64,000 bases of DNA from an uncultured Candidatus Saccharibacteria bacterium (GTDB taxonomy: Bacteria; Patescibacteriota; Dojkabacteria; SC72). Where the stretch lies: assembly GCA_964621195.1 (NCBI GenBank), contig CAZULJ010000002.1:83665-147664 (forward strand), written 5' to 3'. The stretch's first letter is position 1. Every line of letters starts with the position of its first letter. Shown here piece after piece: positions 37,483 through 64,000 of this stretch. A model generated the notes under the pieces. The model did no database searches and was not told the origin of the DNA. It saw only the letters and a program-made list of their open reading frames with translations. The translations under genes and the position numbers were made by a program.

Positions 37483-39558
37483 ATGAAATATACTGCTGCC
37501 CTAAAATACATATTTCTCTTTCTTTTCACCCTTTTACTTGCACCAAATGTCTACTCACAAGGTTCATTTGAATCAATGCAGGAGGATGTAACTGTTGAGG
37601 CGAATATTACAGTTGATTTTTACTCTACAGTCAATGTTAATCCAATAACGGTAGAAATATATCAACCAAGTAATGTTGAGATAAGGGTACTATCACCTAG
37701 CGGATTGGGTATTCCTGGAAGGCAGATTGTAATACTTGCTCCTGGTTTAACGGTTACTCAACCTATTACCCTTACAAATGCGACTGGTAGAACGAACGGT
37801 TCTGTATATTCTGCTACCCCTGGTACATATACAGTGTGCGCAAAGGATACTACCTTTGGATATGATATTACGATTCAAAACTGTAGAACCTTGTATGTTG
37901 TGCCTGTCCCAATACCAAATATGTTACCGGAGCCTCAGTACACAAAGGGTTTGAGTAATATTGTTCTTTGGAGTAGCTTGGGTGCAAATTACACATACAA
38001 TGTTCAAGCGAGCGAATATTCCGATTTTAGTTCAGTATTAAGTGAATCTGGATATACCACAAACACATCCCATGAGTTTACTGGTTTAGAGGATGCCAAG
38101 ATGTATTTCTACAGAGTTCGTGCTCAAAATCAGTATGGTGGAACAGGTGCATGGTCTAATATCGTTTACAGCGTTCAGGACAATCAACCCCCAGTTATTG
38201 AAGTCCTAGATATTGGAGATGTAGGTCAAAATGATACTGTGAATTGGAGCAGTACTCATGTTGTTACAATGCTTTTTAGAGTTAGTGATAACCTTCAATT
38301 GGCGAGTACACAATTCTTCTGTCTTAATACTGGAGATAACCTAGTTGCATGTACAGATGATTACTCCTTCGAGGGGGATATTTTTACTGTTAATGTTAGA
38401 CTTGGTGATTTGGAGAGAATATCGGGTGTTTACCTTAAAGAGAGGTATGGGTTTTGTGTAGAGGCTAGTGATACAGCAACAAATATTACACGAGTATGTG
38501 ATATTTACCTTGATATTCCTAAAGGAGAGTATCCAGTAGAACCAGAGAACCCTCCAATTATTGATAGGATCGAGAAGGGTTTAGAGGATTTAGATGTAAT
38601 ACTTGATGATACAATTGGTCAATTGGATCCTAAGGATTTAGATCGTGTTACTACAACTACCTCTGTTGTGACTGCAACTTCTGCAATAGCTATCGCTGCT
38701 GGAGGTCTTGGTAGTTTGCCTTACTTCCTTCTTCAACTCTTCCTTAATCTTCTATCTTTACTTGGTTTTAGAAAGGGTGCTAAACCTGTGGGTTTTGTAT
38801 ATGATTCTGTTACAAAAGATCCAATATCACAAGCTATCGTTAGAATCTTTGATATGAACAATCGTATTGTATGGTCTGATGTAACAGATAGTAGGGGGTA
38901 TTTCAGTGCTAGATTAAAAGATGGTAGATACAGAATTTTAGTAAGGGCTCCTAGATATGCATTCCCTTCTAATGTTGTTTTTGGAAAAGAGGACTATCCT
39001 TTAACTAATGTATATCATGGTGAAGAGTTCGATATTACTTCCAATGTAGAAGCGAACTATGCAGTACCTATGGATCCTCTTGAAGTTTCGAAACTTCGTC
39101 TTTCATTGGAAACTTTCTGGGCTAGAATTAAATTCCTTGTTAATATGCTTCTCATAGTTTTATTCCTTTTAGGTTTGATATTTGCCTTCTATTCCTATTA
39201 CAACAATCCGTCCTTGTTCTCATTAATCGTATTACTCCTCTTTGTACCAACATTCTTCTTTATACTTAGAAACATATTAAGTAAAGTAGATGATTACGGT
39301 ATCGTAAGAAACAAAGAAGGTGAAAGACTTGAAGGAGTAGTTATTGGATTGAGAGAATCAGAGTTTGACAAGATAGTGGCGAAAAGGGTTACGGATATTA
39401 GGGGTAGGTATAGATTCTTTGTAGGTGAGGGTAGATACTATATTGAAATTTTAGATACTGGATACAGGGTTGAGGATATTGAAGATGGTGATGAGGTGTA
39501 TCTTAAGAAGGAGAGTTTGATTCAAAGGGATATAGTATTAACAAGGATAAAGAAGTGA
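37483..39558 (+). CDS. secreted cell-surface protein: signal peptide, Fn3-like domain(s), C-terminal membrane-anchor module shared with the 2286-aa protein
   Basis: 691 aa. Signal peptide MKYTAALKYIFLFLFTLLLAPNVYSQG; Fn3-like segment YTYNVQASEYSDFS...MYFYRVRAQNQYGGTGAWSN; Thr-rich linker, TM helix, LGFRKGAKPVGFVYDSVTKDPISQAIVRIFD (transthyretin/CarboxypepD_reg-like beta-sandwich), two further TM helices, second beta-sandwich with DKIVAKRVTDIRGRYRF. Confidence 0.6.
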   Translation: MKYTAALKYIFLFLFTLLLAPNVYSQGSFESMQEDVTVEANITVDFYSTVNVNPITVEIYQPSNVEIRVLSPSGLGIPGRQIVILAPGLTVTQPITLTNATGRTNGSVYSATPGTYTVCAKDTTFGYDITIQNCRTLYVVPVPIPNMLPEPQYTKGLSNIVLWSSLGANYTYNVQASEYSDFSSVLSESGYTTNTSHEFTGLEDAKMYFYRVRAQNQYGGTGAWSNIVYSVQDNQPPVIEVLDIGDVGQNDTVNWSSTHVVTMLFRVSDNLQLASTQFFCLNTGDNLVACTDDYSFEGDIFTVNVRLGDLERISGVYLKERYGFCVEASDTATNITRVCDIYLDIPKGEYPVEPENPPIIDRIEKGLEDLDVILDDTIGQLDPKDLDRVTTTTSVVTATSAIAIAAGGLGSLPYFLLQLFLNLLSLLGFRKGAKPVGFVYDSVTKDPISQAIVRIFDMNNRIVWSDVTDSRGYFSARLKDGRYRILVRAPRYAFPSNVVFGKEDYPLTNVYHGEEFDITSNVEANYAVPMDPLEVSKLRLSLETFWARIKFLVNMLLIVLFLLGLIFAFYSYYNNPSLFSLIVLLLFVPTFFFILRNILSKVDDYGIVRNKEGERLEGVVIGLRESEFDKIVAKRVTDIRGRYRFFVGEGRYYIEILDTGYRVEDIEDGDEVYLKKESLIQRDIVLTRIKK

Positions 39559-46106: not shown

Positions 46107-47114
46107 ATGAAAAAAGTTGAATACAAAGTAGAGGTTTTTACAGGTATTAGACCATCTGGTGGTCTTACTATTGCTAATGCTATTGGTGCTGTAAACCCTA
46201 TTGTAAAACTACAAAATGAAGAAGAGATAGGTAATACGATGGTATTTGTAGCAGACTTACATGCTTTAACTGATGGTGAACCAAATGAGACACAGGGTCA
46301 TGTATTGGATGTTGTTAAGGACTATATCGCACTGGGTTTGGATCCTAAAAGAAACAGTATATTTGTACAATCCTCTTTAATTCAGGAGATCGGTGAATTA
46401 AATTTATATCTTTCAAGACTAGTAACTATTGCCGAGTTAATGAGAGTACCAACATTAAAGGAGAAGATAAAGAAGGGGCAGAATGAGAGTAATGCCAATT
46501 CTCTTTTAGCTATGTACCCTATTATGATGGCATCTGATATTCTTTTGCAAAGATCTGAGTATGTACCTGTTGGTGAGGATCAGGTTGCTCATATTGAGAT
46601 TACTAGAGTATTAGCACAAAAATTTAACAAGAAGTATGGTGAGACATTACCATTGCCAAAGGTTTTATCCTTAGGTGCACCAGTGAGAGTAAAGTCTTTA
46701 AATGGTAACGGTAAGATGAGTAAGAGTGATCCTAGTGGAGCAATACTGCTTGATGATCCAATAGAAGTATCCCTTAACAAGATTAAGAGAGCTCAGACAG
46801 CATTCGCGAAGGAGAGCTCAGATTCTCTAGATGCTTTAATTATGATTGGTGAGTATGTTTCAAATGAGGAGGAGAAAGAGCAGTTGAAGGGAATAATTAA
46901 GAGGCATTATGAAGGTGAGAATGTTATGGGTGAATTTAAATCTGCTTTGAGTATTCCATTAGAGAGATTCTTAACAGAGTTCCAATCTAAAAAGAATGAG
47001 ATTAGTAACCAGGATATTGAAAAGAAAATTATAGAGGATTGTGCAATAGCGAAAAAGAATGCTCAAGAAACTATCTCTATGGTTCGCAAGGCAATGGGTT
47101 TAAGATATATCTAA
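46107..47114 (+). CDS. trpS: tryptophan--tRNA ligase
   Basis: 335 aa. FTGIRPSGGLTIANAIGAV (TrpRS-type HIGH region), GKMSKSDPSG (KMSKS), typical TrpRS length. Confidence 0.85.
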   Translation: MKKVEYKVEVFTGIRPSGGLTIANAIGAVNPIVKLQNEEEIGNTMVFVADLHALTDGEPNETQGHVLDVVKDYIALGLDPKRNSIFVQSSLIQEIGELNLYLSRLVTIAELMRVPTLKEKIKKGQNESNANSLLAMYPIMMASDILLQRSEYVPVGEDQVAHIEITRVLAQKFNKKYGETLPLPKVLSLGAPVRVKSLNGNGKMSKSDPSGAILLDDPIEVSLNKIKRAQTAFAKESSDSLDALIMIGEYVSNEEEKEQLKGIIKRHYEGENVMGEFKSALSIPLERFLTEFQSKKNEISNQDIEKKIIEDCAIAKKNAQETISMVRKAMGLRYI

Positions 47115-50100
47115 ATCTTTTGAATCTTTAATTTCCTGCTTACAAGCATCTTTCCTTTGGACTCTATTTCTGTATTACCTTCAACAATTTTTACACTGTT
47201 GTCTGTTGTTTCTATTACAAATTCCCCTTTCTCAGAGATATCAAATGAGTACTTTCCATTTTCATCTGTAACTCTCTTTGCAACAATTTTGTCAAAATCT
47301 TTGTCTTTAAGTACCAAGGTAATATTTGAAGCTGGTGTTCCATCGGTATATGTTACCTTTCCGGATTTCTTACCCAAAGAGGTGAAGCTTTTAATCAAGA
47401 CATAGGTTGTTGGTATGTACAGGAGTAGGAGTGCAAGATTTGCTAGGCTTGATTCTTTGTTGTATACGTAGAGTGCTGTAGTTACTCCTGCCAAGAAGAG
47501 TATGCTGTTTAGGAATGGTAGTATCAAAGAGATTCCACTTCTAATTACTGTCAATGTTTTTTGGTTGGAGAGATCCTTTTTGGGATCCATGGGTATTACT
47601 ACATTGATCTCATTTTCTAACAATCTAATCTTTTCTCCGTGGTATACATTTGAAAGTGGGTAGTCTTCTCTTCCAATTATTAATCTTGATGGGAATGAGA
47701 AGTTTCTTTTCTTAACTTCGAGTATGTAATCTCCTGCTTCTAAACCAACTCTAAAGAGACCTTGCCCATCTGTCACACTGGTTTCTACAAGTTTCTCGGA
47801 TAGATCATATATTCTAACTATAGCTTGTTGAAGTGGGGCTCTTGTGACTGAATCATATACATATCCTGATGGGAATCTTTTTCTCCTAAACCCTAATGTA
47901 CTCAGTATATTTATTACAACTTGTGAAATTGAGTATCCAAGCTGTCCAATATTTCCTAGTACAGAGGCTAAACTTACAGATACTGTTACTGCAGTTGTTG
48001 TTGCTGCAACTGTTGTAAGTTGTTCCTGTTCAATATTCCCCAGTGGTGTTTGATCCAAACTCTCAATTGTTTTTGTAATTGCTCCTTCTACTGCTTGGGT
48101 TATTACTTTTGTTACACTACTTTGTGGTGTACTTGTGGGAGTTTCTTTTTCCTGGGTAATAATTACTTCTCCTTGTCCACCAGTTCCTACTAAACCATCT
48201 GCAATCCAATACATTACTCCTGATACGCTTGCTTGGGAGACTGTTACATCAGATCCTTCGACTTTTTGTTTTTGTGGGAATGTCCCAGTATAGAGGACTC
48301 CATTTGGACAATCTTGTGATACTTCTTCTAATGTAGTGGCTTCTGGACATATTCTAAAACCGTTATCACTGTCTTTCTTTACAACATACATTGTAAATTT
48401 GTCTGTTAAACCGTGTGTTTGATTAATTTTAACAACACTCTTTCCCTCGGATGGGGATGATTTGATTATTGCATTACTCCAATCTCTGTTGTCTGTAAAT
48501 GAAATAGGGAGATCGGCGACTATATACTCATCTGTAAGTACCCTTACTTTTTGTGTTCCTGTTTGTGCTCCATCTATAGTACTAACATCTATTTGTGTAT
48601 TATCTACAAGTGCTGTTGTTATTTCTTCTGGCTTGTTTACAATTATGGAGTATGTTTTACCAGTGTTACTCTCTACATAGTTTGTTTCTACATTAGAACT
48701 GTTTATAGCCTTTGCTCTGAAGGAGTACTGAACCCCTGGTTCTAGATTCCTAAATATTATCCCACTAGTACCACCCCAAGAGGTATAGCTTCCCCAGACT
48801 GGACTATCGACTAATGTTTGGGTTGAGTAATCAAGATATTTCCCGCTGTTCTTTTCCTGTATTGCGAATCTAGTCGAGGAGGGATTTGTATTTCTATCAA
48901 ATTTGATCCTACCAGTACTTCCTCCAATTGTCTCAAATGTAAGATCTTTTGGTGTATTTGCCCATGTTGTAACTGTTACATTTTCAGACCATTGAGAGTA
49001 TACATTATCTGAATTTACTGTTCTGACTTTGAATGTATATGTTGTATTGGGTGGTAGATTAGAGAGTGTGAAATTACTTGTTACCCTTGTATCTGTGTGC
49101 AATACAGTACTGTTTGTAAACCTGTTCTCATTATCTATATTACCATTTGTAGTGACTTCCAGTAGTTGGTAGGTAGTATTTGTTGGGTTACCATTCTTGT
49201 TCACAGTGATCTCAATTGATGATGAGCCTGTTACCCTTGTTGTTAATGTAGATGTCTTTGAGAGTGTATATGCACTTAAGCTTTGTGAGCATGGTGTTTG
49301 TATATTTTCAATATTCTTTGCTTTTACACAGAATGTATACAAGGTATTGGGAGATAGGTTTTGAATATTTAACCCAGTAAATCCTCCAATTTCTTCATAT
49401 GTTTTCCAAAGAGTTTGCGATGTCAAAGATGCACTATCTACACTCTTGTTGCTGATTGTTTCTAGAAGATTGTAAAGTGTTGTATCGTTGTTTCCTCCGT
49501 TGTTTACTACTACCTTTACTGTTGTTGTATCAATTGCCTCTACAGATACTATGCTTGGTGAGTTTGAGAGTGTAGTAACAGTTTGTTCTCCGCTAAATGC
49601 AGTATCAACAAGATCGATGTTTTGAGCTTTTGCTCTGAAGGTGTATGTAATATTAGGATTAAGACCATATATTGTAATTCCATCTGTAAGTCCTAGCTGT
49701 GTGTATGTTGAGTAGTAGGGGGACTCTTGTAGTAATTGTGTTTCAGAGTTAAGGTAGAGGCCGGAAGTTTTCTCTTCTATGAGATATTTTGTAACTTCTG
49801 GATTTTCTTTGATATCTATCTTTACTGTTATACTCTCTGCGTCATAGTTTCCTTGTTGTATATCAAATATTGCAGGTGTTTGAGCGAATGTGCTGCCCTG
49901 TACTGTGTTTGAGAAATCACTCTCTGCAATATTGTTGTAGATCTTAAATTTGCGAGTATATGTTGTATTTGTTTGTAAAGAATCCTCTGTACATGAGGTT
50001 ATACCATCACCTAAACATGTTTTAAGTAAATCTCCGCTTTCATTGTAGACTTTTATACCTAATACTGTGTCTGAGTAAGCAGAAATTCTCCATGTTATCT

Positions 50101-53100
50101 GGCTATCTGAATTTACTGTTGGTGTTAAAGCTGTGATATTTGAAAGTGCTGTTGTAGAAGATTGTGTTGCTGAGTAAGCTGTCTCTATGAGATCCATATT
50201 TCTTGCTTTTACTCTGAATGTATATGTAATACCTGATTGTAGTCCAGATACTGTTATTGTAGGTGTTAAACCATCTAAATGTCCCCATACTGGTGTAGGT
50301 TCAAGTAATCCTGTTGAAAGGTTTACATACATTCCTGAGTAAGTTTCCTGTAAGAGGAGCTCTGTGTGGTTGGGATTTGTTTCTTTGTTAATTTGTACAT
50401 CTATTTGTGAGCTGTTTAATGTTGTTGCATTCTCAATACTTGGGACAACTGCTAAGGTCCATGCGGCTACTTCTGAGGAGTAACTTGTTTCTTCCCCTGT
50501 ATAGTTTCGAGCTTTTACTCTAAAAGAGTACTCACTGTTTGGTTGAAGATTGATTGCAACATCTGTAGTACTTTTAACCCAATCTTGTATACCAGTGTCA
50601 CACTCCTCTATTGTGCAGTCAAAGAATATTCCAGAGTCTCCTGCTGATAGATTTTGAACTCCTGTCCCACTAAGCGAAATTGATGTTGTTGAGAGTGGTC
50701 CTGCTGTTAATGTTGGTATTGGTGCGTGAGTATATATATTTAGATCTGTGGAGTAACTTGTTTCAATATTGTCATTGTTTCTAGCTTTTACTCTGAATGT
50801 GTATCCAGTATTGTTTGTTAGTCCTGTTACATTGGCACTGTTTGTTGTTGTCCATGTATTAAGGTTTGTATCACAATCTCCCTCGCAATCAAAGTAGAGT
50901 TCTCCTCCGTTTACTGGCTGAGAGGCCAGTATCGTTATCGATGAAGAAGTTTTACTGCCTTGGTATTGTAGAGTAGGGACAGATATTAATGTGTAGACAG
51001 AATCTGTGTTTGATCCACTACTATCTGCTTCTGTATTGTAAGCTACAGCATATCTAGTATATTGTGTGTTTTCTGAAAGTGTTGTTTCATCGCAGTATGT
51101 AATGTTTTCTCCTGTACATGTCTTAACTAAGGTATTGTCCTGATCATATATCTTAATACCCTGTTCTCCATTTGCGTTATCTGTAAATGACCAACGGATC
51201 GAAGTTGTAGAAAGTGCTTGTCCAACCAAGTTAGTTGGTGTCCCTGGTAGGTCTAATGTTCTAAATGTATTTGTTGCAGACCAATTACTTACTGATCCTG
51301 ATGTATCCCAGAATCTAATTCTCCAGTAGTAAGTGGTTCCATCTTGATTAAGTGTACTACCATTGTAAGTAATTGCTGAGGATCTTAAATTGTTTATGAG
51401 ATTTGGCATAGATATTTGCCCAGAATCCCACATTACTGTTCCAGTAAAAGAGGAGTTTGTATTGACTTCTACTTCGTAGTAATTTGCAGGATCATTGTCT
51501 GCATCAGTGTGTATTGCTGTAAATGACGGAGTTAAATTTGTAAGTTGTGTCGGATTTACAAGTCCATCTGTTTGTAGAGAGGATGGAGCATCAGGTACCC
51601 TGTTCATTGTAAAAGATCCTCCGTTTGTCCAGTTACTTACAGTGTTATTGCTATCCCAGAATCTAATTCTCCAGTAATATGTTGTACCGTTTAATGTCAG
51701 TGGTACACCATTGTAAGGTATATCAGTACTTCTACTTCCACTTGCAATCGGTGTTGTAGCAATTTGCCCCGAATCCCACATTACTGTTCCAGTAAAAGAG
51801 GAATTAGTATTAACCTCTATTTCGTAGTAATTACCTGTGTCTCCATCGGGATCTGAAAAGAGTGCTGAAAATTCCGGAGTTGTGTCGATTACTCTCGTTG
51901 GAGAGAATACACCTTCGACAAATGGTGTTAGAGGAGAGTTCGGAGTTGTATTCATTCTGAAATTTGCAACTGTAGACCAGCTACTTACTGTCCCATGGTT
52001 ATCTGTAAACCTAATCCTCCAGTAATATGTTGTACCGTTTAATACTAATAGTGTCCCATTGTATGGTATATCTGGACTTTTTGTTCCGCTTGCGGTTGGT
52101 GTCATTGCTGTTTGTCCGGAAGACCACATAACGGTTCCTGTAAAGGAGGGGTTTGTATTTACATCTATTTCATAGTATACCCCCATGTCACCAATATCTA
52201 AGTCGTCAAATTCTGCACTAAATTCTGGTGTGAGATCTGTAACTCTTGTAGGATTGTTAACACCTTCTGTCAAAAGGGTTGTTGGAATGCCTGGAGTAGT
52301 GTTCATATTGAAATTCGCGGTAGAAGACCAAGATCCAACTGTACCATAGTTGTCGGTAAATCTAATTCTCCAGTAATATGTGGATCCATTTAGTGAAAGT
52401 GCCGATCCTGAATATGAGACATCAGGGCTTCTTGCTCCGATTGCAATTGAAAGCATTGGTACCTGTCCGGTGTCCCACATCACTGTTCCAGTAAATGAGG
52501 AGTTTGTATTTACCTCTATTTCGTAGTAGCTTGCGGTATTTCCAGAGTTTGGATCGTTAAAGATTGCGCTAAACTCAGGTGTAGTATCTGTTATCCCCGT
52601 AGGATTTGTTGCAGCTTCAATTAAAAGGGAAGTTGGAGCACTAGGTGCTGTATTCATGGCAAAAGTCGCTGTAGATGACCAGGACCCTACGGTCCCATGG
52701 CTATCTGTAAATCTAATTCTCCAGTAATATGTTGTACCGTTTAATGTAAGTGCGATTCCTGTATATGAAAAGTCTGGACTCCTTGAGCCTATTGCTGTTG
52801 AAACCATTGGAACTTGACCAGAGTCCCACATTACTGTTCCTGTAAAAGAGGAGTTTGTATTTACCTCTATTTCGTAGAAATCTGCAGTATTACCAGAGTT
52901 TGAATCATTAAAGATTGCACTAAATTCTGGAGTGGTATCTGTTACACCAACTGGATTTGTAGCTCCTTCTGAAAGTAGTGATGTTGGTGCTGCTGGAGCT
53001 GTGTTCATTGTGAAGTTTGCAACAGATGACCAAGTGCCTACCGCTCCATAATTATCTGTAAATCTAATTCTCCAGTAATATGTAGTTCCATTTAGTGAAA

Positions 53101-53971
53101 GTTCAGTGCCTGCATACGTGATATTTGGACTTCTAGCACCTATTGCCGTGGAAGTCATAGATACCTGTCCAGAATCCCACATGACAGTCCCGGTAAAAGA
53201 GGAATTCGTGTTTACCTCTATCTCGTAGTAAGTACCAGTATTTCCTGCATTGCTGTCATTAAAGATGGCACTAAACTCAGGTGTAGTATCAGTGACTCCT
53301 GTTGGATTCGTAGCTCCCTCTGCAAGAAGAGATGTCGGTGCTGTTGGTGCTGTGTTCACTAATACAAAGGTGGCATTAAAAGAGAGATTCGCTGTGACAT
53401 CGGTTTCAATTCTTGGGTTTGCTGTAGATCCATCGCTCCATTGTGAAAATGCATATCCACCATTTGGAACTGCAGTGACTGCTGTACCATTGCTACCTCT
53501 ACATACCGATTGAGATGTCGTTCCAGAGAGTGTTCCTCCAGCACTTGCTGTATATGTTAGGGTGTACTTTAGAAGCCAGAATGTCCATGTTGTAGTTCCA
53601 CATGATCCACATCCATCATATCTAGTACATGAGTTTGTAGTTGAAGAACAACCTGTGTTTGTTGTTGTATATCCTGATGGGGTAGAAGGTGTGCAGCTAC
53701 CACACGAGCCACAATCAGGTTCGCATATATCACAGCAGTATCCAAACCCAGCATCAAACTCACTTGCATAGCAGCTTACTCTAGATACACATCCCCCTGG
53801 TCCTGTACAAACATTTAGTGGTACATTTGCTTCACACCCACTCGGGCATGTTAATGCTTCTACAGGAGTTGATGCAAAGTTGAGAAAAAAGAGTGAAAGT
53901 AATGATACAAAGAGGGATATTCCAGAAAAAAAGAGTAATCTTCTACTATTATTAGTCTTTATCTTTATCAT
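47111..53971 (-). CDS. giant (2286 aa) secreted cell-surface protein: signal peptide, Cys-rich N-terminal region, 7 tandem 117-aa Fn3-like repeats, further diverged Ig/Fn3-like domains, C-terminal membrane-anchor module
   Basis: Single uninterrupted ORF. N-terminal signal/TM. About 20 Cys in residues 35-140 (CPSGCEANVPLNVCTGPGGC...CCDICEPDCGSCGSC). Repeats TAPxAPTSLL..GATNPTGVTDTTPEFSAIFND...YYEIEVNTNSSFTGTVMWDSGQ...YYWRIRFTD...W. C-terminal LGFRRKRFPSGYVYDSVTRAPLQQAIVRIYD ... DKIVAKRVTDENGKYSF homologous to the C-terminus of 37483..39558. Confidence 0.7.
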   Translation of the reverse strand: MIKIKTNNSRRLLFFSGISLFVSLLSLFFLNFASTPVEALTCPSGCEANVPLNVCTGPGGCVSRVSCYASEFDAGFGYCCDICEPDCGSCGSCTPSTPSGYTTTNTGCSSTTNSCTRYDGCGSCGTTTWTFWLLKYTLTYTASAGGTLSGTTSQSVCRGSNGTAVTAVPNGGYAFSQWSDGSTANPRIETDVTANLSFNATFVLVNTAPTAPTSLLAEGATNPTGVTDTTPEFSAIFNDSNAGNTGTYYEIEVNTNSSFTGTVMWDSGQVSMTSTAIGARSPNITYAGTELSLNGTTYYWRIRFTDNYGAVGTWSSVANFTMNTAPAAPTSLLSEGATNPVGVTDTTPEFSAIFNDSNSGNTADFYEIEVNTNSSFTGTVMWDSGQVPMVSTAIGSRSPDFSYTGIALTLNGTTYYWRIRFTDSHGTVGSWSSTATFAMNTAPSAPTSLLIEAATNPTGITDTTPEFSAIFNDPNSGNTASYYEIEVNTNSSFTGTVMWDTGQVPMLSIAIGARSPDVSYSGSALSLNGSTYYWRIRFTDNYGTVGSWSSTANFNMNTTPGIPTTLLTEGVNNPTRVTDLTPEFSAEFDDLDIGDMGVYYEIDVNTNPSFTGTVMWSSGQTAMTPTASGTKSPDIPYNGTLLVLNGTTYYWRIRFTDNHGTVSSWSTVANFRMNTTPNSPLTPFVEGVFSPTRVIDTTPEFSALFSDPDGDTGNYYEIEVNTNSSFTGTVMWDSGQIATTPIASGSRSTDIPYNGVPLTLNGTTYYWRIRFWDSNNTVSNWTNGGSFTMNRVPDAPSSLQTDGLVNPTQLTNLTPSFTAIHTDADNDPANYYEVEVNTNSSFTGTVMWDSGQISMPNLINNLRSSAITYNGSTLNQDGTTYYWRIRFWDTSGSVSNWSATNTFRTLDLPGTPTNLVGQALSTTSIRWSFTDNANGEQGIKIYDQDNTLVKTCTGENITYCDETTLSENTQYTRYAVAYNTEADSSGSNTDSVYTLISVPTLQYQGSKTSSSITILASQPVNGGELYFDCEGDCDTNLNTWTTTNSANVTGLTNNTGYTFRVKARNNDNIETSYSTDLNIYTHAPIPTLTAGPLSTTSISLSGTGVQNLSAGDSGIFFDCTIEECDTGIQDWVKSTTDVAINLQPNSEYSFRVKARNYTGEETSYSSEVAAWTLAVVPSIENATTLNSSQIDVQINKETNPNHTELLLQETYSGMYVNLSTGLLEPTPVWGHLDGLTPTITVSGLQSGITYTFRVKARNMDLIETAYSATQSSTTALSNITALTPTVNSDSQITWRISAYSDTVLGIKVYNESGDLLKTCLGDGITSCTEDSLQTNTTYTRKFKIYNNIAESDFSNTVQGSTFAQTPAIFDIQQGNYDAESITVKIDIKENPEVTKYLIEEKTSGLYLNSETQLLQESPYYSTYTQLGLTDGITIYGLNPNITYTFRAKAQNIDLVDTAFSGEQTVTTLSNSPSIVSVEAIDTTTVKVVVNNGGNNDTTLYNLLETISNKSVDSASLTSQTLWKTYEEIGGFTGLNIQNLSPNTLYTFCVKAKNIENIQTPCSQSLSAYTLSKTSTLTTRVTGSSSIEITVNKNGNPTNTTYQLLEVTTNGNIDNENRFTNSTVLHTDTRVTSNFTLSNLPPNTTYTFKVRTVNSDNVYSQWSENVTVTTWANTPKDLTFETIGGSTGRIKFDRNTNPSSTRFAIQEKNSGKYLDYSTQTLVDSPVWGSYTSWGGTSGIIFRNLEPGVQYSFRAKAINSSNVETNYVESNTGKTYSIIVNKPEEITTALVDNTQIDVSTIDGAQTGTQKVRVLTDEYIVADLPISFTDNRDWSNAIIKSSPSEGKSVVKINQTHGLTDKFTMYVVKKDSDNGFRICPEATTLEEVSQDCPNGVLYTGTFPQKQKVEGSDVTVSQASVSGVMYWIADGLVGTGGQGEVIITQEKETPTSTPQSSVTKVITQAVEGAITKTIESLDQTPLGNIEQEQLTTVAATTTAVTVSVSLASVLGNIGQLGYSISQVVINILSTLGFRRKRFPSGYVYDSVTRAPLQQAIVRIYDLSEKLVETSVTDGQGLFRVGLEAGDYILEVKKRNFSFPSRLIIGREDYPLSNVYHGEKIRLLENEINVVIPMDPKKDLSNQKTLTVIRSGISLILPFLNSILFLAGVTTALYVYNKESSLANLALLLLYIPTTYVLIKSFTSLGKKSGKVTYTDGTPASNITLVLKDKDFDKIVAKRVTDENGKYSFDISEKGEFVIETTDNSVKIVEGNTEIESKGKMLVSRKLKIQKI
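51030..53360 (-). repeat. in-frame coding tandem repeat, 7 copies, 351-bp period (one copy 328 bp)
   Basis: Recurring AATCTAATTCTCCAGTAATATG anchor at 53061, 52710, 52359, 52008 (variant), 51660, 51332 on the + strand; protein-level repeats more than 70% identical. Confidence 0.75.
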
Positions 53972-54519
53972 TCCTTTTTGTTAATATCTTTTCTTCTCTC
54001 GTTGTATGTACCTAAAAACCAACCTGCAACAAGAAGGATGGGAACCAATACTACAATTATTGCCGTCTTAATATCGATATCAACTCTCTCTGTAACCTCA
54101 TCTTCTTCTCCTACTGTTGTTGCAGATTTAACTTCTTTAACAGAGAGAGTAATTAACTCTTCCTTCTCTCTTTCTCCAACCTTAATCTCAACTGTATGAT
54201 CTTTCTCTTCTAAATTCTGAATACTAAAAAGTACAAACCAATTACCACTAGCATCTACCCTTGTTTCATAGGTCTGTTCTTCTATGTATATATTGATTAG
54301 TTCTTCAGGAGTTCCCAATCCAGCTATTTTTACTGTATCTTGATCGTTTACAGATATTGTCCCACTCTCTACAGAAACATTCTCATTGTTTATGGCTATG
54401 TAATCTAGATTCGGGTGTTTTGTATATGAGAGCTCTTGGGCATTAACGGTATTTATACTGAACAGGAGTAGTGTAAGGGTTAGTAGGTATGTAAAAATAT
54501 TTTTTCTTTCTTTTTGCAT
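53968..54519 (-). CDS. small bitopic membrane protein translationally coupled to the giant surface protein gene
   Basis: 183 aa. N-terminal signal/TM (FTYLLTLTLLLFSINTVNA), C-terminal TM (IIVVLVPILLVAGWFLGTY) plus basic tail. Stop overlaps the giant gene start (ATGA arrangement at 53968-53971). Confidence 0.45.
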   Translation of the reverse strand: MQKERKNIFTYLLTLTLLLFSINTVNAQELSYTKHPNLDYIAINNENVSVESGTISVNDQDTVKIAGLGTPEELINIYIEEQTYETRVDASGNWFVLFSIQNLEEKDHTVEIKVGEREKEELITLSVKEVKSATTVGEEDEVTERVDIDIKTAIIVVLVPILLVAGWFLGTYNERRKDINKKE

Positions 54520-54735: not shown

Positions 54736-55848
54736 ATGAAAAAGATACTTATTGTAATTGGTGATGCTGGTGGGGGGCATATCTCATGTGCAAGGGCTAT
54801 GAAGGAGGCTTTTATTAAAGATTGTAAAGGGTATGACATTGAAATTGTAGATTTATTCAAGCTTTCAAAATTCACTAAATATTACGACTATTTCTATTAC
54901 TTAGTGAGTACATATCCTTTCTTTGAATTCTTCTACAATATCGGATATATGTTAATCGACAAAAGTGCATTTCTTGCAAAGATTTTGGAAATACCTACAG
55001 CGAGATCATTGTACAGACCGACGATGAAACTTCTAAAGGAGAAGAATCCAGATTTGGTTCTTACTAACAGTTGCTTGACTACACTTGTATTGAGAAAGTG
55101 CAAAAAGAAGAGAGATTTCAATTATGTAATAACGGTTTCAGATCTAATACCTGTTTCAAGATGGTGGGCTGATTCTTCTGCAGACATTATTTTCTGTCCA
55201 ACAAAGGATGCGAGTAAGAAGATAAAGGGGTATAATTCGGAGTGTAATACACAAGACTCTTACTATCCATTGAGAGAGGTTGAAAAATATTCGAAAGAGA
55301 AAAAGAGTGAGGTAAAGGAGAGGATCTTTAAAAAGTACAAACTTAAAAGGGATATTCCAACAGTTTTAATTACAGGGTGTGGTATTGCAACTAGAAATAT
55401 TGTTAAGAGTATGGAGGAATTTATAAAGGGGTCTAAGTATCAATTTTTAATTCTTACTGGTAAGGATGAAAGATTGAAAAAGTATCTAGAAAGAAAGTAT
55501 ATAGATGAGAGTAGAGTGTCTGTACTTGGTTTTACAAAAGAAATAGTGGATCTGTTTTACTCTTCGGATATTGTTTTAGCTAAACCTGGACCAGCAACTC
55601 TTCTTGAAATTGAAGAAGTTGGCAAGAGGGCGGTTTTTACAAGAGCCGTTGGGTATCAGGAGTGGGGTAATGTTGAATATTTAGAAAAGAATCCGAACTT
55701 TTCATATGTAGGTTCTAATTACAGTAGTATACCAGCCCTTCTGAAAAGTAATCTTGAAAAGCCTTCTGTGCAATTCAAGAGTACAATCCTTGGGTCTAGT
55801 GCAATTGTAAGTAAGATTAAGGAGTACTACGGACTAAACAAAAGTTAG
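54736..55848 (+). CDS. GT28 family diacylglycerol glycosyltransferase (MGDG synthase/UgtP-like glycolipid synthase)
   Basis: 370 aa. N-terminus MKKILIVIGDAGGGHISCARAMKEAF matches the MGDG_synth N-domain signature (GGGH). Confidence 0.6.
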   Translation: MKKILIVIGDAGGGHISCARAMKEAFIKDCKGYDIEIVDLFKLSKFTKYYDYFYYLVSTYPFFEFFYNIGYMLIDKSAFLAKILEIPTARSLYRPTMKLLKEKNPDLVLTNSCLTTLVLRKCKKKRDFNYVITVSDLIPVSRWWADSSADIIFCPTKDASKKIKGYNSECNTQDSYYPLREVEKYSKEKKSEVKERIFKKYKLKRDIPTVLITGCGIATRNIVKSMEEFIKGSKYQFLILTGKDERLKKYLERKYIDESRVSVLGFTKEIVDLFYSSDIVLAKPGPATLLEIEEVGKRAVFTRAVGYQEWGNVEYLEKNPNFSYVGSNYSSIPALLKSNLEKPSVQFKSTILGSSAIVSKIKEYYGLNKS

Positions 55849-57067
55849 TGCAAATCCTTTTTTACCTGCTCTTCCTGTTCTACCTATTCTATGTATGTAA
55901 TCATCGTAATTTTCTGGCATATCGTAGTTTATTACATGTGTAATATTGTTAACGTCTAAGCCTCTTGATGCTACATCTGTTGCAATTAAGATATTTATTT
56001 GGTCTTTCTTAAAGGCATCTATGATTCTTGATCTTTGTGCTTGTCTTTTATCTCCGTGTAGAGCATTTACCCTAACACCAGTTTCATACAATTTCTTTGA
56101 AAGAGATTCTGCCTCTCTTTTTGTTCTTGTAAAGATTAAGACCTTTTTAAAATCATCTTTCTTTATATATTGAGAGAGTTACTCCAAATTTGTTCTCTCC
56201 TTCTTTGAGTCTAATGACATCTTGATCTACATTCTTACCTGGAGCCTGTTTCTCTACCTCTATCCTTACTGGGTTCTTTAAAAGTGTGTTCGCAATCTCT
56301 TCTGATTTTCTATTCATAGTTGCAGAAAAGAAAAGTGATTGTCTATTTTCGTTTAAGCGGGAAGTTATATACCTAATATCGTCAATGAATACCATATCTA
56401 ACATTCTATCTACTTCATCTAATATGACATTGTTTATATCCTTTAGGTATATAGCACCCCTCTCTGAAACATCCTTTAATCTACCTGGTGTTGCAATTAC
56501 AAATGCTGGATCTCTTCTTAATATCCCAATTTGTGCTCCTATGCTATTTCCACCAATTATTAATACTGATCTAAGTCCTGTATTTCTTGCTAATTGCATA
56601 AATTCATCTTGTATTTGCATTGCAAGCTCTCTTGTTGGAACTACTATTAAAAATCTTTGAGACCTATCCTGTACACCTTTGTTTATCATTGGTATGAGGA
56701 AGGCTGCTGTTTTACCAGAGCCTGTACTTGCTAATCCTAAGATATCTTTTCCTTTTAGTATTTTTGGAATGGCTTCGTGCTGAATCTTGGTAGGGCTTGT
56801 ATACTTTTTAAAAGTAATATTCTTTTTAAGCTCCTTTACCAAGTTAAGTTCTAAAAGATTGTGATCTAATACATATATACTTGGTAGATCTTCGTATACA
56901 GCTTTTGCTATTAGCTGGTTTACATTGATCCTAGTACCTCTTCTGTTATATCCACCGCCTCTTCTGCTATTGCTATATGAGGAGCTTCTATATGAAGGTC
57001 TTCTTCTACTGTTATTTCTATTGTAACGGTCATTATGGTCGTAATTTCTTCTGGAAGTGTTTTCCAT
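55834..57067 (-). pseudogene. DEAD-box ATP-dependent RNA helicase interrupted by a frameshift near 56160-56172
   Basis: N-terminal ORF 56153..57067 carries Q-motif, Walker A ASTGSGKTAAF, PTRELA, DEVD, SAT. C-terminal ORF 55834..56091 carries ALHGD, ILIATDVASRGLD, HRIGRTGRAGKKG. Manual retranslation shows the helicase continues in the +1 frame from ...YKE as KDDFKKVLIFTRTKREAESLSKKLYETGVRV.... N-terminal 60 aa is an Arg/Ser/Asn-rich low-complexity extension. Confidence 0.75.
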
Positions 57068-59346: not shown

Positions 59347-59991
59347 ATGGATAGATTCGAAGCATTAAGAAAAGCTCAGGAGGGTACCCTTGAAAAAACT
59401 CCTTTCACACCTGAAGATCAGCTAGAAGCCGTTTCTAATGCAGAGAAAAATTCTAGAGTTATGACATGTGAGGAGAAAAGGGCAAAGATCCTGAATATGA
59501 TTCTTTTGATAATAGTTTCTGCTCTTATAGGGGTATTTGTATATCTGTTTTTTACAGATAGATTGTTAATAGGTGTTGAGAATCCTCTGTCGAAGGGGGA
59601 GGTTGTGGATATACAGGAGAAGGAAGAAGAGGAGGAGGTCCTCGCGCAGGATCAGGAAGAGTTCCGTTTGTTTAAGAATACAAGGGAGATCTTAGACTCT
59701 GAGGGCAATGTTGTTGGGAATCAAGAGCTAACAGTAAAGTTTTTTACTAACGGGGGGAGATTTGAAATGGATATTCAAAATGCATTAGGTAATGGTGTTG
59801 TAGTAGAGGGCACTTATGTAGAGGAGGCTGATAGGATACTGCTTTCATTTGCGAGTGGTAAATTTGGTCTTGAAACTGATGGCTCACTCGAGTTTAAGTC
59901 TGTATCTGAGGATGGAACTGTTTTAGAGTACTCTGGAAGTGACTTTGGGGATACTCTTCCTGATGAGGGAGATAGATATTTATTGTATTAA
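59347..59991 (+). CDS. hypothetical membrane-anchored protein
   Basis: 214 aa. One TM helix (ILNMILLIIVSALIGVFVYLFF), then an acidic stretch and a beta-rich C-terminus. No motif. Confidence 0.4.
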   Translation: MDRFEALRKAQEGTLEKTPFTPEDQLEAVSNAEKNSRVMTCEEKRAKILNMILLIIVSALIGVFVYLFFTDRLLIGVENPLSKGEVVDIQEKEEEEEVLAQDQEEFRLFKNTREILDSEGNVVGNQELTVKFFTNGGRFEMDIQNALGNGVVVEGTYVEEADRILLSFASGKFGLETDGSLEFKSVSEDGTVLEYSGSDFGDTLPDEGDRYLLY

Positions 59992-61103
59992 TCAATATAT
60001 ATTCTAGGAACCCTTTCGCTAATACCACACAGGAGGTCATAGATAGATCTGTCCGATTCATCGGATATTTTAAATAGGGAGATCTTTTCTCCCCAAAGTT
60101 CGACATCATCTCCTACGTATGCCTCTCCCTGTGGTGTAATATCTACCATGGTTTGGTCCATACAGACTCTTCCTGCTACTGGGTAGAAATTTTCATTTAA
60201 AAATACTTCTCCAGTATTGGATAGTGATCTTGGGTATCCATCGGCATATCCTACTGGAAGAGTTACAATACGTGTTCTTTCCTTTGTGGTGTATGTTCTG
60301 TCATATCCAATAGTTAGACCTTCTTCTAAGACCTTGAAGTAGGATACTTTTGTTTTGAATTTCATCACAGGTTTCAGTAATTTCTGTATATCAGGGTTGT
60401 ATGAGTATCCATACAGCATTAATCCCGGTCTTATCATATCAAAAAAGGCCTCCTCAATATTGTTAAAAACAGATCCTGAGTTACCTAAATGTACTAGATT
60501 AGGAAGAGTATATTTCTCTTCAATGTAACTTAATACACTCTTGAATCTTTTAATTTGTTCTTTTGTATATTCAATATCATCGGTAGAATTGGCAAAGTGA
60601 GAATATATCCCTACAATATTTAAATTCGGAAGAGAGTATGCCTTCTCTACGAATGTTTCTTTCCTATCCCATTGAACTCCTATTCTTCCCATTCCGGTGT
60701 CTATCTTAATGTGTACATTTGCTTTAATATTCATTTGAGTTGCGACCCTTGATATTTCTTCCAACTTTTCAATAGAGGAGCCGGGTATATCGATATCGTT
60801 CTATAGAAAGAGGGGTATCTGAGAATTATCTATTGCCCCTAATACCAAGATTGGAACCTTAATAGAGTTCTTTCTTAAAAAGAGTGCTTCCTCGATATAT
60901 GCCACTCCCAGGTAATCAATCTTAAGGGATTGTAACTTTGTTGCTACTTCTACAAGCCCATGTCCATATGCATTGGCCTTCACAACACCTAATATCTTTG
61001 TAGAACCAATAATATCTCTTACAACTTTAAGGTTGTTTTCCAAATTTGAGAGAGATATTTCGACTCTTGTTGGTCTGTTGTTAAATATTGGATCCTTAAA
61101 CAT
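59988..61103 (-). pseudogene. alr: alanine racemase interrupted by a single in-frame TAG (stop codon at 60801-60803)
   Basis: ORFs 60801..61103 (PLP-lysine motif GVVKANAYGHG) and 59988..60764 (KIDTGMGRIG, C-terminal domain) are in the same frame. Manual translation reads ...QIPLFL-TAG-NDIDIPGSSIEKLEEISRV... with no other disruption. Confidence 0.75.
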
Positions 61104-61107
61104 ATGA

Positions 61108-62103
61108 TTAGGCGTTTTCTATATAGAAGGTGATAAGGTGGGTATAGGATATCCCTATGGCTTGAGCTTCCTGGGGAATGAGTGAGGTTGAGGTCATGCC
61201 AGGGAGAGTGTTTGTTTCAAGATAGTAGATTCTTTCTCCTTGTATTAGAAAGTCTGATCTACTGTAAAGTCTACATCCAAGTATGTTATGTATTTGTGCA
61301 GATATGTTTGAGATTTGTTGTCTTTGCTCCTCTGTAATCCCTATCGCGGGTATTCTTTCTAACGAACCTCCTTTTGTATATTTTGCTTTGTAATCAAAAA
61401 ACTCGGAGCTTTGAGGAATAATCTCTATTGGTGGTAGTTGTAATATTGTATGATCTTTTTTCTCTAAGCATCCACAACTTACTTCAACTTTTTGATCTAT
61501 TAATTCTTGTATTAATATTTCATCTTTATCTTTATGATGTTTGTAAAATTCTTCTAAAAGAGTGTCAATATTTTCTAAGTTCTTAACTACGAAAGAGCAT
61601 ACACTCGATCCGTTTTTGTTTGGTTTTACAAAGACAGGGAGCGATATTTTTGATAAGGTATCTTTGAGATTTATTAATCGAACTAACTGTGTCTTAGGAG
61701 TTAGGATACCTGTTGTTGCATGCACAAGGATACTTGATCTGTATTTATCCATTGCTAATCGGCTCGCATATGAATCTGAACCTGTGAATACAATGCCATT
61801 TTCTTCGAGGTATGTTTATAAGACTCCGTCTTCTCCAAATTGTCCGTGGGTACCAAGTAGTACTGTGTCGTAGGATTTTAATTTTTCAAGTGTTTCTTCA
61901 AGTGAGTACTTTCCTTTTTGTAGTTTGGTGATATCTGTTTTCTGTTTTATTCTTTCAATATTGCTTCTCCTATCTTTTCCGATTATACAAATGCTTACTT
62001 CATATTTTGAGTAATCAATATTGTCAATTATTGATTGTGAAGAAGAAAGGGATGCTTCATATTCGCTTGAGGGGCCTCCACACACTACTATTACTTTTTT
62101 CAT
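61108..62103 (-). pseudogene. ddl: D-alanine--D-alanine ligase interrupted by a single in-frame TAA (stop codon at 61816-61818)
   Basis: ORFs 61816..62121 (N-domain ...LLGTHGQFGEDGVL) and 61108..61752 (ATP-grasp C-domain) are in the same frame: ...GEDGVL-TAA-TYLEENGIVFTGSDSYASRLAMDKY... The stop falls where Ddl homologs carry Gln (E. coli GEDGTLQG). Stop is 4 bp upstream of the alr start. Confidence 0.75.
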
Positions 62104-62215: not shown

Positions 62216-62981
62216 CTACCAATCTTTAGGGTCCCTCCACTCTGGTCTTGCCATAAGGCTGAATTCGCGACCGTTTTCGTCCGCCATAACCAGGGCACAT
62301 GGAGAGTTGGGGTTTCTTTCCCATGTCTGTGCTTCCAGACCGGAATTGTCGGCAATGAACTCAATCCATGCGCTCCGGGTCTGAAGTAGCTACATCCCAA
62401 TGCAATCCGGGGGTCCAATCGTTAGGCCAGAGCTGATGCTCTACCCAGTAGATCCCATTGGGGGATCGATTGGTCCGAACGGGGATGTAGTTCCTCTCGT
62501 GGTCTGGCGCTGGCTTTGGTTCTGCCCAGGTCTGGTACCGTTCTTCGTCGCGCTGAACCGCAAGGTTTCGAGCATCCCTATCAGGGTGGCGGAAGCCAAC
62601 GTGATGGAAGCGAACCTCATGGTCCATGCTCCAATAGCGAAGGAGAGCAAACATAAGATCGATCTGATCATTCTCCCATGCAGAGCATGAAACGATCAAA
62701 TGATCCTCGCGATAGCCTCCAGCCCAGGGGCGGCCCTCGTCAAGAGGGGTCTTGCTGATTCCTCGCTTGTTCCCTCCAGCAAGGAGAGAAAAAGCCTTCC
62801 AGGGTCCATACATTGCTGGTCCTGGGTTTGATCCGATGCCTCCCGCCCACTGCGCAGAAAATTCTGCTACGTCATAGCCTGTGTGATCGGCCTCGATAAA
62901 CGTGACGTAAGTGGGCGTTCCTGCTGACCCAAACATAAGGTCAGCAAGGTTATACGTACTGCGAAACTGATCGAGAATCAT
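62216..62981 (-). pseudogene. GC-rich (~55%) foreign gene of unknown function, frameshifted near its 3' end
   Basis: Strong SD GGAGGAAAAC before ATG at 62981. 206-aa frame ends ...HWDVATSDPERMD*, but another frame stays open from there (...RSAWIEFIADNSGLEAQTWERNPNSPCALVMADENGREFSLMARPEWRDPKDW*) to 62216. Base composition is sharply different from the rest of the window. Confidence 0.45.
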
Positions 62982-63080
62982 GTTTTCCTCCGAAAAAAGG
63001 TTTTGGTGTTTTACACCTACTGTTAACGAACAAAGAGGTTATACTATAAGACAAAAATAGAGGCAAGAAACCCTTTCCTG

Positions 63081-64000
63081 ATGGACCTTTCCACTCGCTA
63101 TGTAACCTTGGCATATGACGATGTATATGTTAATCTGGAAGATAGAATGAAAAATGCTCTCAAAATGAAATTTGATGCTTGTATAGACAGAAAAATAGTA
63201 CTAAAAAGAATATTAACAGTGGTATCTTTGTTTGTTATTTCAGCCCTATCTAGTAGCTTTGCCTTTTCCGCAGAGCTTTCGGTTCAAGGTGATTCTGAAT
63301 TAAGGTCAGGTACTCTATTTAATGCAAGAGAATCTGAAAATGGTACAGGAGTAAAGCTTGAATCCGATGGGACATGGGGAGCATTAACTTGGCAGACTCC
63401 TGATAAAACTTTGGGAGTTGGTTCTGCTTTTACATCTGATGGTGAGTACATTTATGTGGTTCGTGGGCTTGGAGATATATTACTCTGGAGATACTCATAT
63501 CAAACAGATAGCTGGGATACTCTTACCAAGATGCCATATGGTGCATATTACGGATCTGACCTACAGTACTTAAATGGATATCTGTACGTTCTTTTCGGTG
63601 GATATCAAAACTCTTTTGCTAGATATTCTATTGCGGATGATAGCTGGGAGATATTAACTGTTTATCCTGAATTGGTATTTCAGGGGGCGAGCATGGCTAC
63701 GAATGGTACTGATATTTTTGTTATTACTTCAAACAATACTCAAAGTTTCTATAGATACTCTGTAGCAAATGATTCTTGGATTTCTCTTACAGGTGCGCCT
63801 GGCACATTAAGAACAGGCTCTGATTTGGAGCATGTAGGTGGGTATATATATACTCCCAGAGGGAACAATACGAATACTTTCTACCGATATGAGATATCTA
63901 CAAATACATGGGCTACGATGGCAAATATGCCTGGTACTATGAATGATGATGTAGATATTACTAGTGCAAATGGATACATATATGTTGCAAGGCAGAACAA
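63081..64000 (+). CDS. Kelch-repeat beta-propeller protein with N-terminal signal peptide (3' end beyond window)
   Basis: Open frame to window end. Hydrophobic signal (ILTVVSLFVISALSSSFAFSAE; alternative start ATG 63147). At least four repeats of the GxYIYVxxG...YRYxxxxDxW Kelch-like pattern. Confidence 0.55.
   Translation, partial: MDLSTRYVTLAYDDVYVNLEDRMKNALKMKFDACIDRKIVLKRILTVVSLFVISALSSSFAFSAELSVQGDSELRSGTLFNARESENGTGVKLESDGTWGALTWQTPDKTLGVGSAFTSDGEYIYVVRGLGDILLWRYSYQTDSWDTLTKMPYGAYYGSDLQYLNGYLYVLFGGYQNSFARYSIADDSWEILTVYPELVFQGASMATNGTDIFVITSNNTQSFYRYSVANDSWISLTGAPGTLRTGSDLEHVGGYIYTPRGNNTNTFYRYEISTNTWATMANMPGTMNDDVDITSANGYIYVARQN

Follow-up and report, generated by a model that had tools for sequence, protein, structure and literature searches.

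Here we describe a giant gene in a 64,000-nucleotide (nt) stretch of contig CAZULJ010000002.1 (GenBank assembly GCA_964621195.1, positions 83,665 to 147,664; hereafter the window), which comes from an uncultured bacterium of the Dojkabacteria lineage. The gene is a single open reading frame (ORF) of 2286 amino acids (aa) on the minus strand (47111..53971), uninterrupted over 6.9 kb. Its product is probably a fibrillar surface protein of Candidatus Dojkabacteria (Patescibacteria/CPR), exported by the Sec route and held in the membrane by its C-terminus, and most probably an attachment fibre.

An earlier analysis based on the letters of the DNA alone (the sequence-only reading) had already singled out this 2286-aa ORF as a surface protein with Ig/Fn3-like repeats. 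The domain order bears this out: the protein has a signal peptide, six Ig_Rha78A_N units, nine Fn3 domains with paired cysteines within Fn3 and a C-terminal transmembrane (TM) anchor. It has a mass of 248 kDa, is acidic (pI 4.6) and is rich in Thr, Ser and Asn.

We infer an attachment function and picture the protein at work as follows. The 15 Ig/Fn3 domains would form a stalk of about 50-70 nm, with the Ig_Rha78A_N array setting the stalk length, and the stalk would hold a disulfide-bonded head off the cell, where the head may bind a ligand on a host cell or substrate. A small protein encoded directly upstream would be co-translated with the giant protein and may act with the Cys-rich head at the membrane.

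Domain architecture of the giant protein

All features of the giant gene lie on the minus strand and are given in window coordinates. The protein begins with a signal peptide or signal anchor (aa 1-39, 53855..53971; hydropathy) that is hydrophobic at aa 10-38, with a predicted cleavage site after VEA and before Leu40. It is followed by a Cys-rich head domain (aa 40-135, 53567..53854). The cysteine richness of this end had been pointed out before, with a count of about 20 in about 110 aa; the number is lower, with 12 cysteines in the first 110 aa and 15 at aa 42-124, and a sixteenth at C157.

The head has no match in Pfam or NCBIfam. A search of 1.84e9 representative proteins gave nine matches, eight of them genuine, and in all eight the head is N-terminal with InlB B-repeats behind it. 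The ninth and weakest match (P0151), to a repeat protein without cysteines, seems to be spurious. Orthologs keep the Cys pattern. An AlphaFold2 (AF2) model of the head, built from 6 sequences, is of low confidence, with a mean predicted local distance difference test score (pLDDT) of 62, and it has no fold match in the PDB. In the giant protein, the head is likewise followed by a divergent InlB B-repeat (Flg_new_2, PF18998; aa 136-203, 53363..53566; E 2.4e-9), which scores 32.8 to 37.5 bits against a gathering score of 23.6.

The sequence-only reading had also tied the cysteines to a DsbA-like ORF at 559..1314. This ORF is real: it is DsbA/thioredoxin-like, has a TM at its N-terminus and contains a CPYC motif. 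It is 46 kb distant from the giant gene and shows no synteny with it. Its presence fits disulfide formation in a generic way only, as a sign that the cell is able to form disulfides outside the cytoplasm.

Behind the Ig_Rha78A_N array, where at least eight further Ig/Fn3-like domains had been anticipated, we count nine Fn3 domains (about aa 905-1774, 48650..51253) using an iterative hidden Markov model (HMM) and Pfam fn3. Four of them, domains 1, 2, 3 and 5, hold Cys pairs. Next comes a conserved membrane-proximal domain (aa 1776-1945, 48137..48646) with Cys1875 and Cys1888, which is 64-77% identical among orthologs. This domain has no family match in Pfam, NCBIfam or PDB sequence searches, and its AF2 pLDDT is below 50.

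The C-terminal anchor (aa 1987-2286) opens with a hydrophobic region, after which two transthyretin/CnaB-like domains flank a pair of TMs. The hydrophobic region (aa 1987-2030, 47882..48013; hydropathy segment at aa 1987-2006), which is followed by RRKR, either crosses the membrane once or forms a helical hairpin; it is conserved in alignment A1, and AF2 places a helix at aa 2001-2025 with a pLDDT below 50. The first transthyretin/CnaB-like domain (aa 2035-2130, 47582..47869) matches Pfam CarboxypepD_reg (PF13620), and the TM pair (aa 2145-2169 and 2175-2197, 47381..47539) is called by hydropathy and AF2 helices. The second transthyretin/CnaB-like domain (aa 2203-2286, 47114..47365), at the very C-terminus, matches Pfam SdrD_B and a second stretch of CarboxypepD_reg. 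The two PF13620 stretches score 37.2 to 45.1 bits against a gathering score of 32.3 bits.

Structure prediction, which the sequence-only reading had proposed as a check, succeeded for parts of the anchor and not for the head. In an AF2 model of the C-terminal 596 aa, built on a 21-sequence alignment, the pLDDT is 80-87 for both transthyretin/CnaB-like domains, and only these and the TM pair are confident. Foldseek gives generic matches of the anchor to SdrD B, CnaB2 and the transthyretin-like domain of carboxypeptidase D, and a PDB sequence search with the same 596 aa returned nothing significant. No LPx[TSA]G motif occurs anywhere in the giant protein. The GGxGxD (RTX) motif is likewise absent from it, and a Sec-type N-terminal signal is present instead.

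The window encodes a second protein with the same anchor of about 330 aa, a 691-aa surface protein with a Big_1/Fn3 ectodomain (37483..39558, plus strand; Pfam). The two anchors are 37% identical over 328 aa (BLASTP, E 1e-52). Since this paralog bears the anchor behind a different ectodomain, the anchor is a reusable module, and it is also found behind unrelated ectodomains in proteins of about 690-800 aa from other metagenomes.

The Ig_Rha78A_N array and its copy number

The repeat array (aa 207-906, 51254..53353) is made of six head-to-tail units, all in frame. The 351-bp period reported earlier is that of units R1 (53003..53353), R2 (52652..53002), R3 (52301..52651) and R4 (51950..52300), each of 117 aa; R5 (51602..51949) and R6 (51254..51601) are 116 aa or 348 bp long. 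Seven units had been counted from the sequence. We find six by three measures: the anchor motifs YYWRIRF and TPEFSA/TPSFTA each occur six times in the array, an HMM built from the units has six matches (E 1e-62 to 1e-67) and hits the rest of the protein no better than E 0.08, and Pfam PF25788 (Ig_Rha78A_N) matches six stretches inside aa 207-906 (296.5 bits, E 8e-90). One extra Pfam stretch, a candidate seventh repeat, is a weak Ig_Rha78A_N cross-match on Fn3 domain 8 (about aa 1597-1669). The domain search that had been proposed for the repeats therefore has a clear outcome, as every unit is an Ig_Rha78A_N domain; over the whole protein the family scores 308.5 bits (E 1.4e-93; gathering score 27.4 bits). 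A PDB sequence search with two repeat units found nothing significant.

The family name raises the question of whether the giant protein could be a carbohydrate-active or glycan-binding protein related to the GH78 alpha-L-rhamnosidases. Besides the Pfam match at about 1e-93, NCBIfam rhamnosidase models also hit the protein at E 1e-44 to 1e-47. With these models, NF041572 and NF041573, the scores are 162 and 151 bits, where the cutoffs are 1800 and 1720, and only about positions 10-132 of their 946-1028 are matched; Pfam scans found no GH78 (alpha/alpha)6, Bac_rhamnosid or other catalytic domain. Because the models match with their N-terminal domain only and far below cutoff, the giant protein is not an enzyme, and we regard a kinship of function with the rhamnosidases as very unlikely. 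We know of no function for the GH78 N domain itself.

The units had also been described as near-identical, with more than 70% protein identity. They are not near-identical, and only units 1-3 exceed 70% among themselves: across the array, unit-to-unit identity is 51-82% in protein and 57.5-76% in DNA, and Tandem Repeats Finder reports only 3.0 copies with 76% matches. Because synonymous sites are saturated between units (proportion of synonymous differences, pS, 0.56-0.78), dN/dS is 0.05-0.32 and the longest exact run common to any two units is 38 nt, the repeats are, judging by their sequences, old tandem domain duplications kept by purifying selection. They exceed chance by far, yet they are ancient domain duplicates.

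This divergence bears on the proposal that near-identical repeats make the locus a hot spot of copy-number change, with phase or antigenic variation as the outcome and an assembled unit number that is unreliable. Several observations could be read in favour of such a contingency locus. Species differ in their number of units, from 1 to 10, and in the ortholog P0002 two units are 79% identical. In addition, same-strain contigs break at an exact run shared by R1 and R2, and a strain with 97% average nucleotide identity (ANI) diverges from the window at the 5′ end of the giant gene. Set against them is the state of the units: since they are so diverged and share at most 38 nt, reads of at least 100 nt place uniquely and there is essentially no substrate for slippage or RecA-dependent recombination. 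All units are in frame and under purifying selection, and unit number changes over species-level time. We therefore consider a contingency locus highly improbable, and a 351-bp coding period alone does not imply a recombination or phase-variation hot spot.

The contig breaks themselves have a technical origin. Logan contigs from at least four runs (ERR14064717, SRR31966178, SRR31966179 and SRR31966181) are 99.93-99.96% identical to the window and reproduce the first 918 nt of the giant gene. All of them end at 53054/53055, inside R1, at the end of a 31-nt exact run shared by R1 and R2, because a k=31 de Bruijn graph branches there; this is branching and not collapse. Ending inside R1, these contigs carry no copy-number information. 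A look-up for contigs that encode exactly the giant protein returned none.

The proposed comparison of repeat number across strains or metagenome samples gives an answer between species, and the same-strain contigs stop too early to give one within the strain. Among orthologs the window has 6 units and P0005 has 10; P0002, P0003 and P0004 have 5 each, P0006-P0009 have 3 each, P0011, P0012 and P0018 have 2 each, and P0025 has 1. In a tree of the units, window R1 is orthologous to unit 1 of P0002 (88%), and window R2 and R3 are each other's nearest relatives. The R2/R3 pairing indicates that a unit was either duplicated in this lineage or lost in its sister. Copy number does change, on the timescale of speciation, by slow gain and loss.

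In the P0002 locus (L001), the adjacent units 4 and 5 are 79% identical overall, with first halves that are nearly identical, which suggests a duplication or gene conversion more recent than any in the window.

Could the ORF or its array be chimeric or otherwise mis-assembled? The contig was assembled from a metagenome, and elsewhere in the window a helicase gene is frameshifted and the alr and ddl genes have in-frame stops. The giant ORF is open for its full length, orthologs from independent projects keep the domain order end to end, and the 5′ 918 nt recur at 99.9% in at least four independent runs, with the helicase frameshift reproduced likewise. Collapse of the repeats, also feared in the sequence-only reading, is implausible in a normal assembly because the units differ at 24-42% of DNA positions. 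An assembly artefact is the least probable of the explanations that we weighed.

The frameshifted gene encodes a DEAD-box helicase (55834..57067, minus strand). A shift of 1 nt within about 56155..56180 divides it into a DEAD part of 304 aa and a Helicase_C part of 85 aa; in relatives it is one intact gene of 406-408 aa. Since L006 and L008, which were assembled independently, have the same frameshift, the window assembly alone cannot be its source. The alanine racemase gene (alr, 59988..61103, minus strand) has an in-frame TAG at 60801..60803, which is GAG in L006, the contig of the strain with 97% ANI. The D-Ala-D-Ala ligase gene (ddl, 61108..62103, minus strand) has an in-frame TAA at 61816..61818, which is CAA in L006. 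These nonsense codons in two adjacent peptidoglycan-precursor genes could reflect gene decay, a population variant or consensus error.

Orthologs, head exchange and the small upstream gene

An identical giant protein is present in NCBI, encoded on a contig of 158 kb. The next relatives are 48-70% identical over nearly the full length and are 1,560-3,050 aa long; the named close homologs belong to Candidatus Dojkabacteria, and one related genome was labelled Saccharibacteria by its submitter. A genome scan with the single protein matched the P0002 genome only.

The neighbours of the giant gene are housekeeping genes. A TrpRS/TyrRS-type synthetase gene (46107..47114) adjoins it, followed by UDG, NDK, an HI0933-like flavoprotein and a radical-SAM protein. 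On the opposite flank are a GT28/MGDG-synthase-like glycosyltransferase, a DEAD-box helicase, an epimerase and a HAD hydrolase. In five related loci the order HAD, epimerase, DEAD helicase, GT28-like, giant gene, TrpRS/TyrRS-type synthetase, UDG, NDK, HI0933-like and radical SAM is kept, and the giant gene is therefore vertically inherited with a fixed position.

Several relatives carry an additional ORF of 650-670 aa between the giant and tRNA synthetase genes (L002, 12578..14596; L003, 12652..14607; L004, 12768..14762). It belongs to no confident family, with a weak VanW-like match, and is absent from the window and from L001. This downstream ORF of about 660 aa was tried as a paralog of the anchor and proved unrelated to it.

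Elsewhere in the window, which has a G+C content of about 35%, there is one tRNA and no other Rfam match, and a scan for promoters and terminators gave no more matches than shuffled expectation. The stretch ~62738..64000 has a G+C content of 0.435 and aligns to L006 1..1751, a part of L006 that runs into a further giant gene (2395 aa) with Kelch/Fn3 matches. A second very large surface-type protein probably starts or ends at the window edge.

Conservation of the giant protein is uneven. All blocks from R1 to the C-terminus are conserved across orthologs, and the first ~206 aa are not. The ortholog heads are of two types: either Cys-rich with at least one InlB B-repeat behind it, or DUF2341 and after it a region rich in Gly, Ser, Thr and His. 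We compared the head types with a neighbour-joining tree of the protein bodies (1,359 columns, 200 bootstraps). The window and P0002, both with Cys-rich heads, group with the DUF2341-headed P0006-P0008 (86% support); P0003 and P0004 (Cys) group with P0009 (DUF2341; 100%), and P0146 (Cys) groups with P0025 (DUF2341; 96%). As the head types are interleaved in the body tree, at least three head exchanges are implied.

The head type goes together with a small gene. Directly upstream of the giant gene lies an ORF of 183 aa (53968..54519, minus strand), and the two overlap by 4 nt (ATGA), so that the stop of the small ORF is shared with the start of the giant gene. The small protein has a signal-like N-terminus, an Ig-like ectodomain, a C-terminal TM (aa 148-172) and a short basic tail, in agreement with the bitopic membrane protein described in the sequence-only reading, which saw in it a possible secretion or chaperone partner. 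It has a weak match, below cutoff, to the NCBIfam Ca_tandemer model of an Ig-like adhesin repeat (E 1.2e-4) and only five homologs among 5.8e9 proteins. With an invariant NWFVLFS motif, it also stands upstream of the giant gene in L001, L004, L012 and L013. The link between the two genes, proposed earlier as translational coupling, is upheld by a start overlap conserved in five related loci. The small ORF is present and overlaps the giant start in five of the five loci with a Cys/InlB head, and in none of the three with a DUF2341 head.

These patterns admit a more specific reading, which we put forward tentatively. The giant gene may be a conserved chassis, made of the stalk and an anchor of a kind not described before, with a recurrently exchanged 5′ specificity cassette, bordered by the Ig_Rha78A_N array as a homology tract for exchange. 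One cassette would consist of the small bitopic Ig-like partner, joined by its start/stop overlap to a lineage-restricted disulfide-rich head, and the other of a DUF2341 head without a partner gene. Because the array borders the exchangeable head, it may offer homology for recombination, both for head swaps and for changes in unit number, and its use as a homology tract would explain a unit number of 1 to 10.

A possible trace of such an event is found in L006 (Logan SRR33038822), the contig of a strain with 97.3% ANI. It matches the window to 53984 and then diverges over its last 30 nt (L006 10537..10566, window 53954..53984). The divergence point is 13 nt upstream of the giant start codon, and the contig ends 17 nt past the small ORF, which in L006 ends in KDMGLD before its stop codon compared to KDINKKE in the window. 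A search of the rest of the window and of the related loci gave no second copy of the divergent 30-nt tail. The divergence may reflect either a structural variant at the head or an artefact of the contig end. If the cassette reading is true, the L006 divergence at the junction of the small ORF and the giant gene would be a recent exchange event.

The main rival to an attachment fibre is a structural role in the envelope, in which the giant protein would be an S-layer-like component, a constitutive spacer, sheath or wall scaffold, and no ligand-binding adhesin. The gene is single and sits in conserved synteny beside housekeeping genes in the loci examined, its body of about 1,400 aa is strongly conserved, and its dedicated anchor module is found on at least one other surface protein of the same genome. 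All this would suit a structural component. Yet the distal tip is the only part that is exchanged, which is expected of a ligand-recognition end and not of a lattice-forming protein, and Pfam and NCBIfam detect no S-layer or SLH-type domains. We thus hold a structural role to be unlikely, although it deserves more weight than the other alternatives.

A number of points weigh against the attachment fibre. The head is without a recognisable fold. Body conservation (50-88% identity) together with synteny would also fit a structural envelope role and not a fast-evolving host-specific adhesin. The association of head type with the small ORF rests on eight phylogenetically related loci, and the body tree was made by neighbour-joining only. 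Finally, basic residues follow the first hydrophobic region (RRKR), precede TM2 and follow TM3 (K/R). By the positive-inside rule, this distribution favours three membrane passes and would place both transthyretin/CnaB-like beta-sandwich domains in the cytoplasm, which is unusual for the fold. Both domains would instead lie outside if the first hydrophobic region formed a hairpin.

Relation to known giant surface proteins

As an attachment fibre or otherwise, the giant protein falls within a known kind, the giant patescibacterial surface protein. Very large proteins of Patescibacteria are preferentially targeted to the surface, carry Fn3 and adhesin-type domains and have been proposed as host-interaction factors (PMC13059738; PMC11809585), with examples from Absconditicoccaceae (PMC13059738). 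The protein described here shares with them a length above 1,500 aa, a signal peptide and TM, Fn3/adhesion-type beta-sandwich domains and its origin in an ultrasmall, presumably host-dependent bacterium; for this group, host attachment has been proposed and domain reshuffling suggested. Arrays of Ig_Rha78A_N are common in Patescibacteria proteins that also bear DUF2341, LamG or RHS domains.

A further comparison is with the FhaB/DUF2341 proteins of Patescibacterium danicum, which exceed 4000 aa and are without full-length homologs (PMC11809585). In contrast, the giant protein of the window has full-length orthologs in conserved synteny across species. It also differs in its domains, with a Cys-rich head, an InlB B-repeat, an Ig_Rha78A_N array and an anchor in which TMs are combined with two transthyretin/CnaB-like domains, and it is without FhaB domains.

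Like the fibrillar adhesins of Gram-positive bacteria (MSCRAMMs such as SdrD), the giant protein combines a distal region with a tandem Ig-like stalk whose number of domains varies between relatives, and it contains CnaB/SdrD-B-like folds. Unlike MSCRAMMs, it has no LPXTG sortase signal and is anchored by integral TMs. Its CnaB-like domains are found within the anchor, between and after the TMs, and not in the stalk, which is built of Fn3 and Ig_Rha78A_N. The comparison with GH78 alpha-L-rhamnosidases is similar: each of the six units is above the PF25788 threshold, whereas the domain is single and precedes catalytic domains in the enzymes, and here it is repeated six-fold in tandem in a non-enzymatic surface protein.

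The giant adhesins of the RTX/Bap type and phage tail fibres also combine a conserved stalk or anchor with an exchangeable recognition tip, and phage fibres often come with a small accessory gene linked to the tip. In the giant protein there is no signal of a type I secretion system (T1SS) or RTX, no phage context and no homology to these systems, and the likeness is one of logic only.

Three uncharacterised parts of the locus stand out: the anchor, with its TMs and two transthyretin/CnaB-like domains, the Cys-rich head and the small partner. A life in attachment to other microbes is generally assumed for Patescibacteria, and to our knowledge the molecules that make this contact are almost wholly unknown. 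With this locus, a whole class, the Dojkabacteria, has a candidate attachment fibre that is conserved and syntenic. Its division into a conserved stalk and anchor on one side, and an exchangeable tip with a linked small gene on the other, provides targets for localisation, host-range correlation and binding studies. If the tentative reading of the 5′ end as an exchanged cassette is right, the range of hosts or ligands of a member of the Dojkabacteria should be predictable from its head type.

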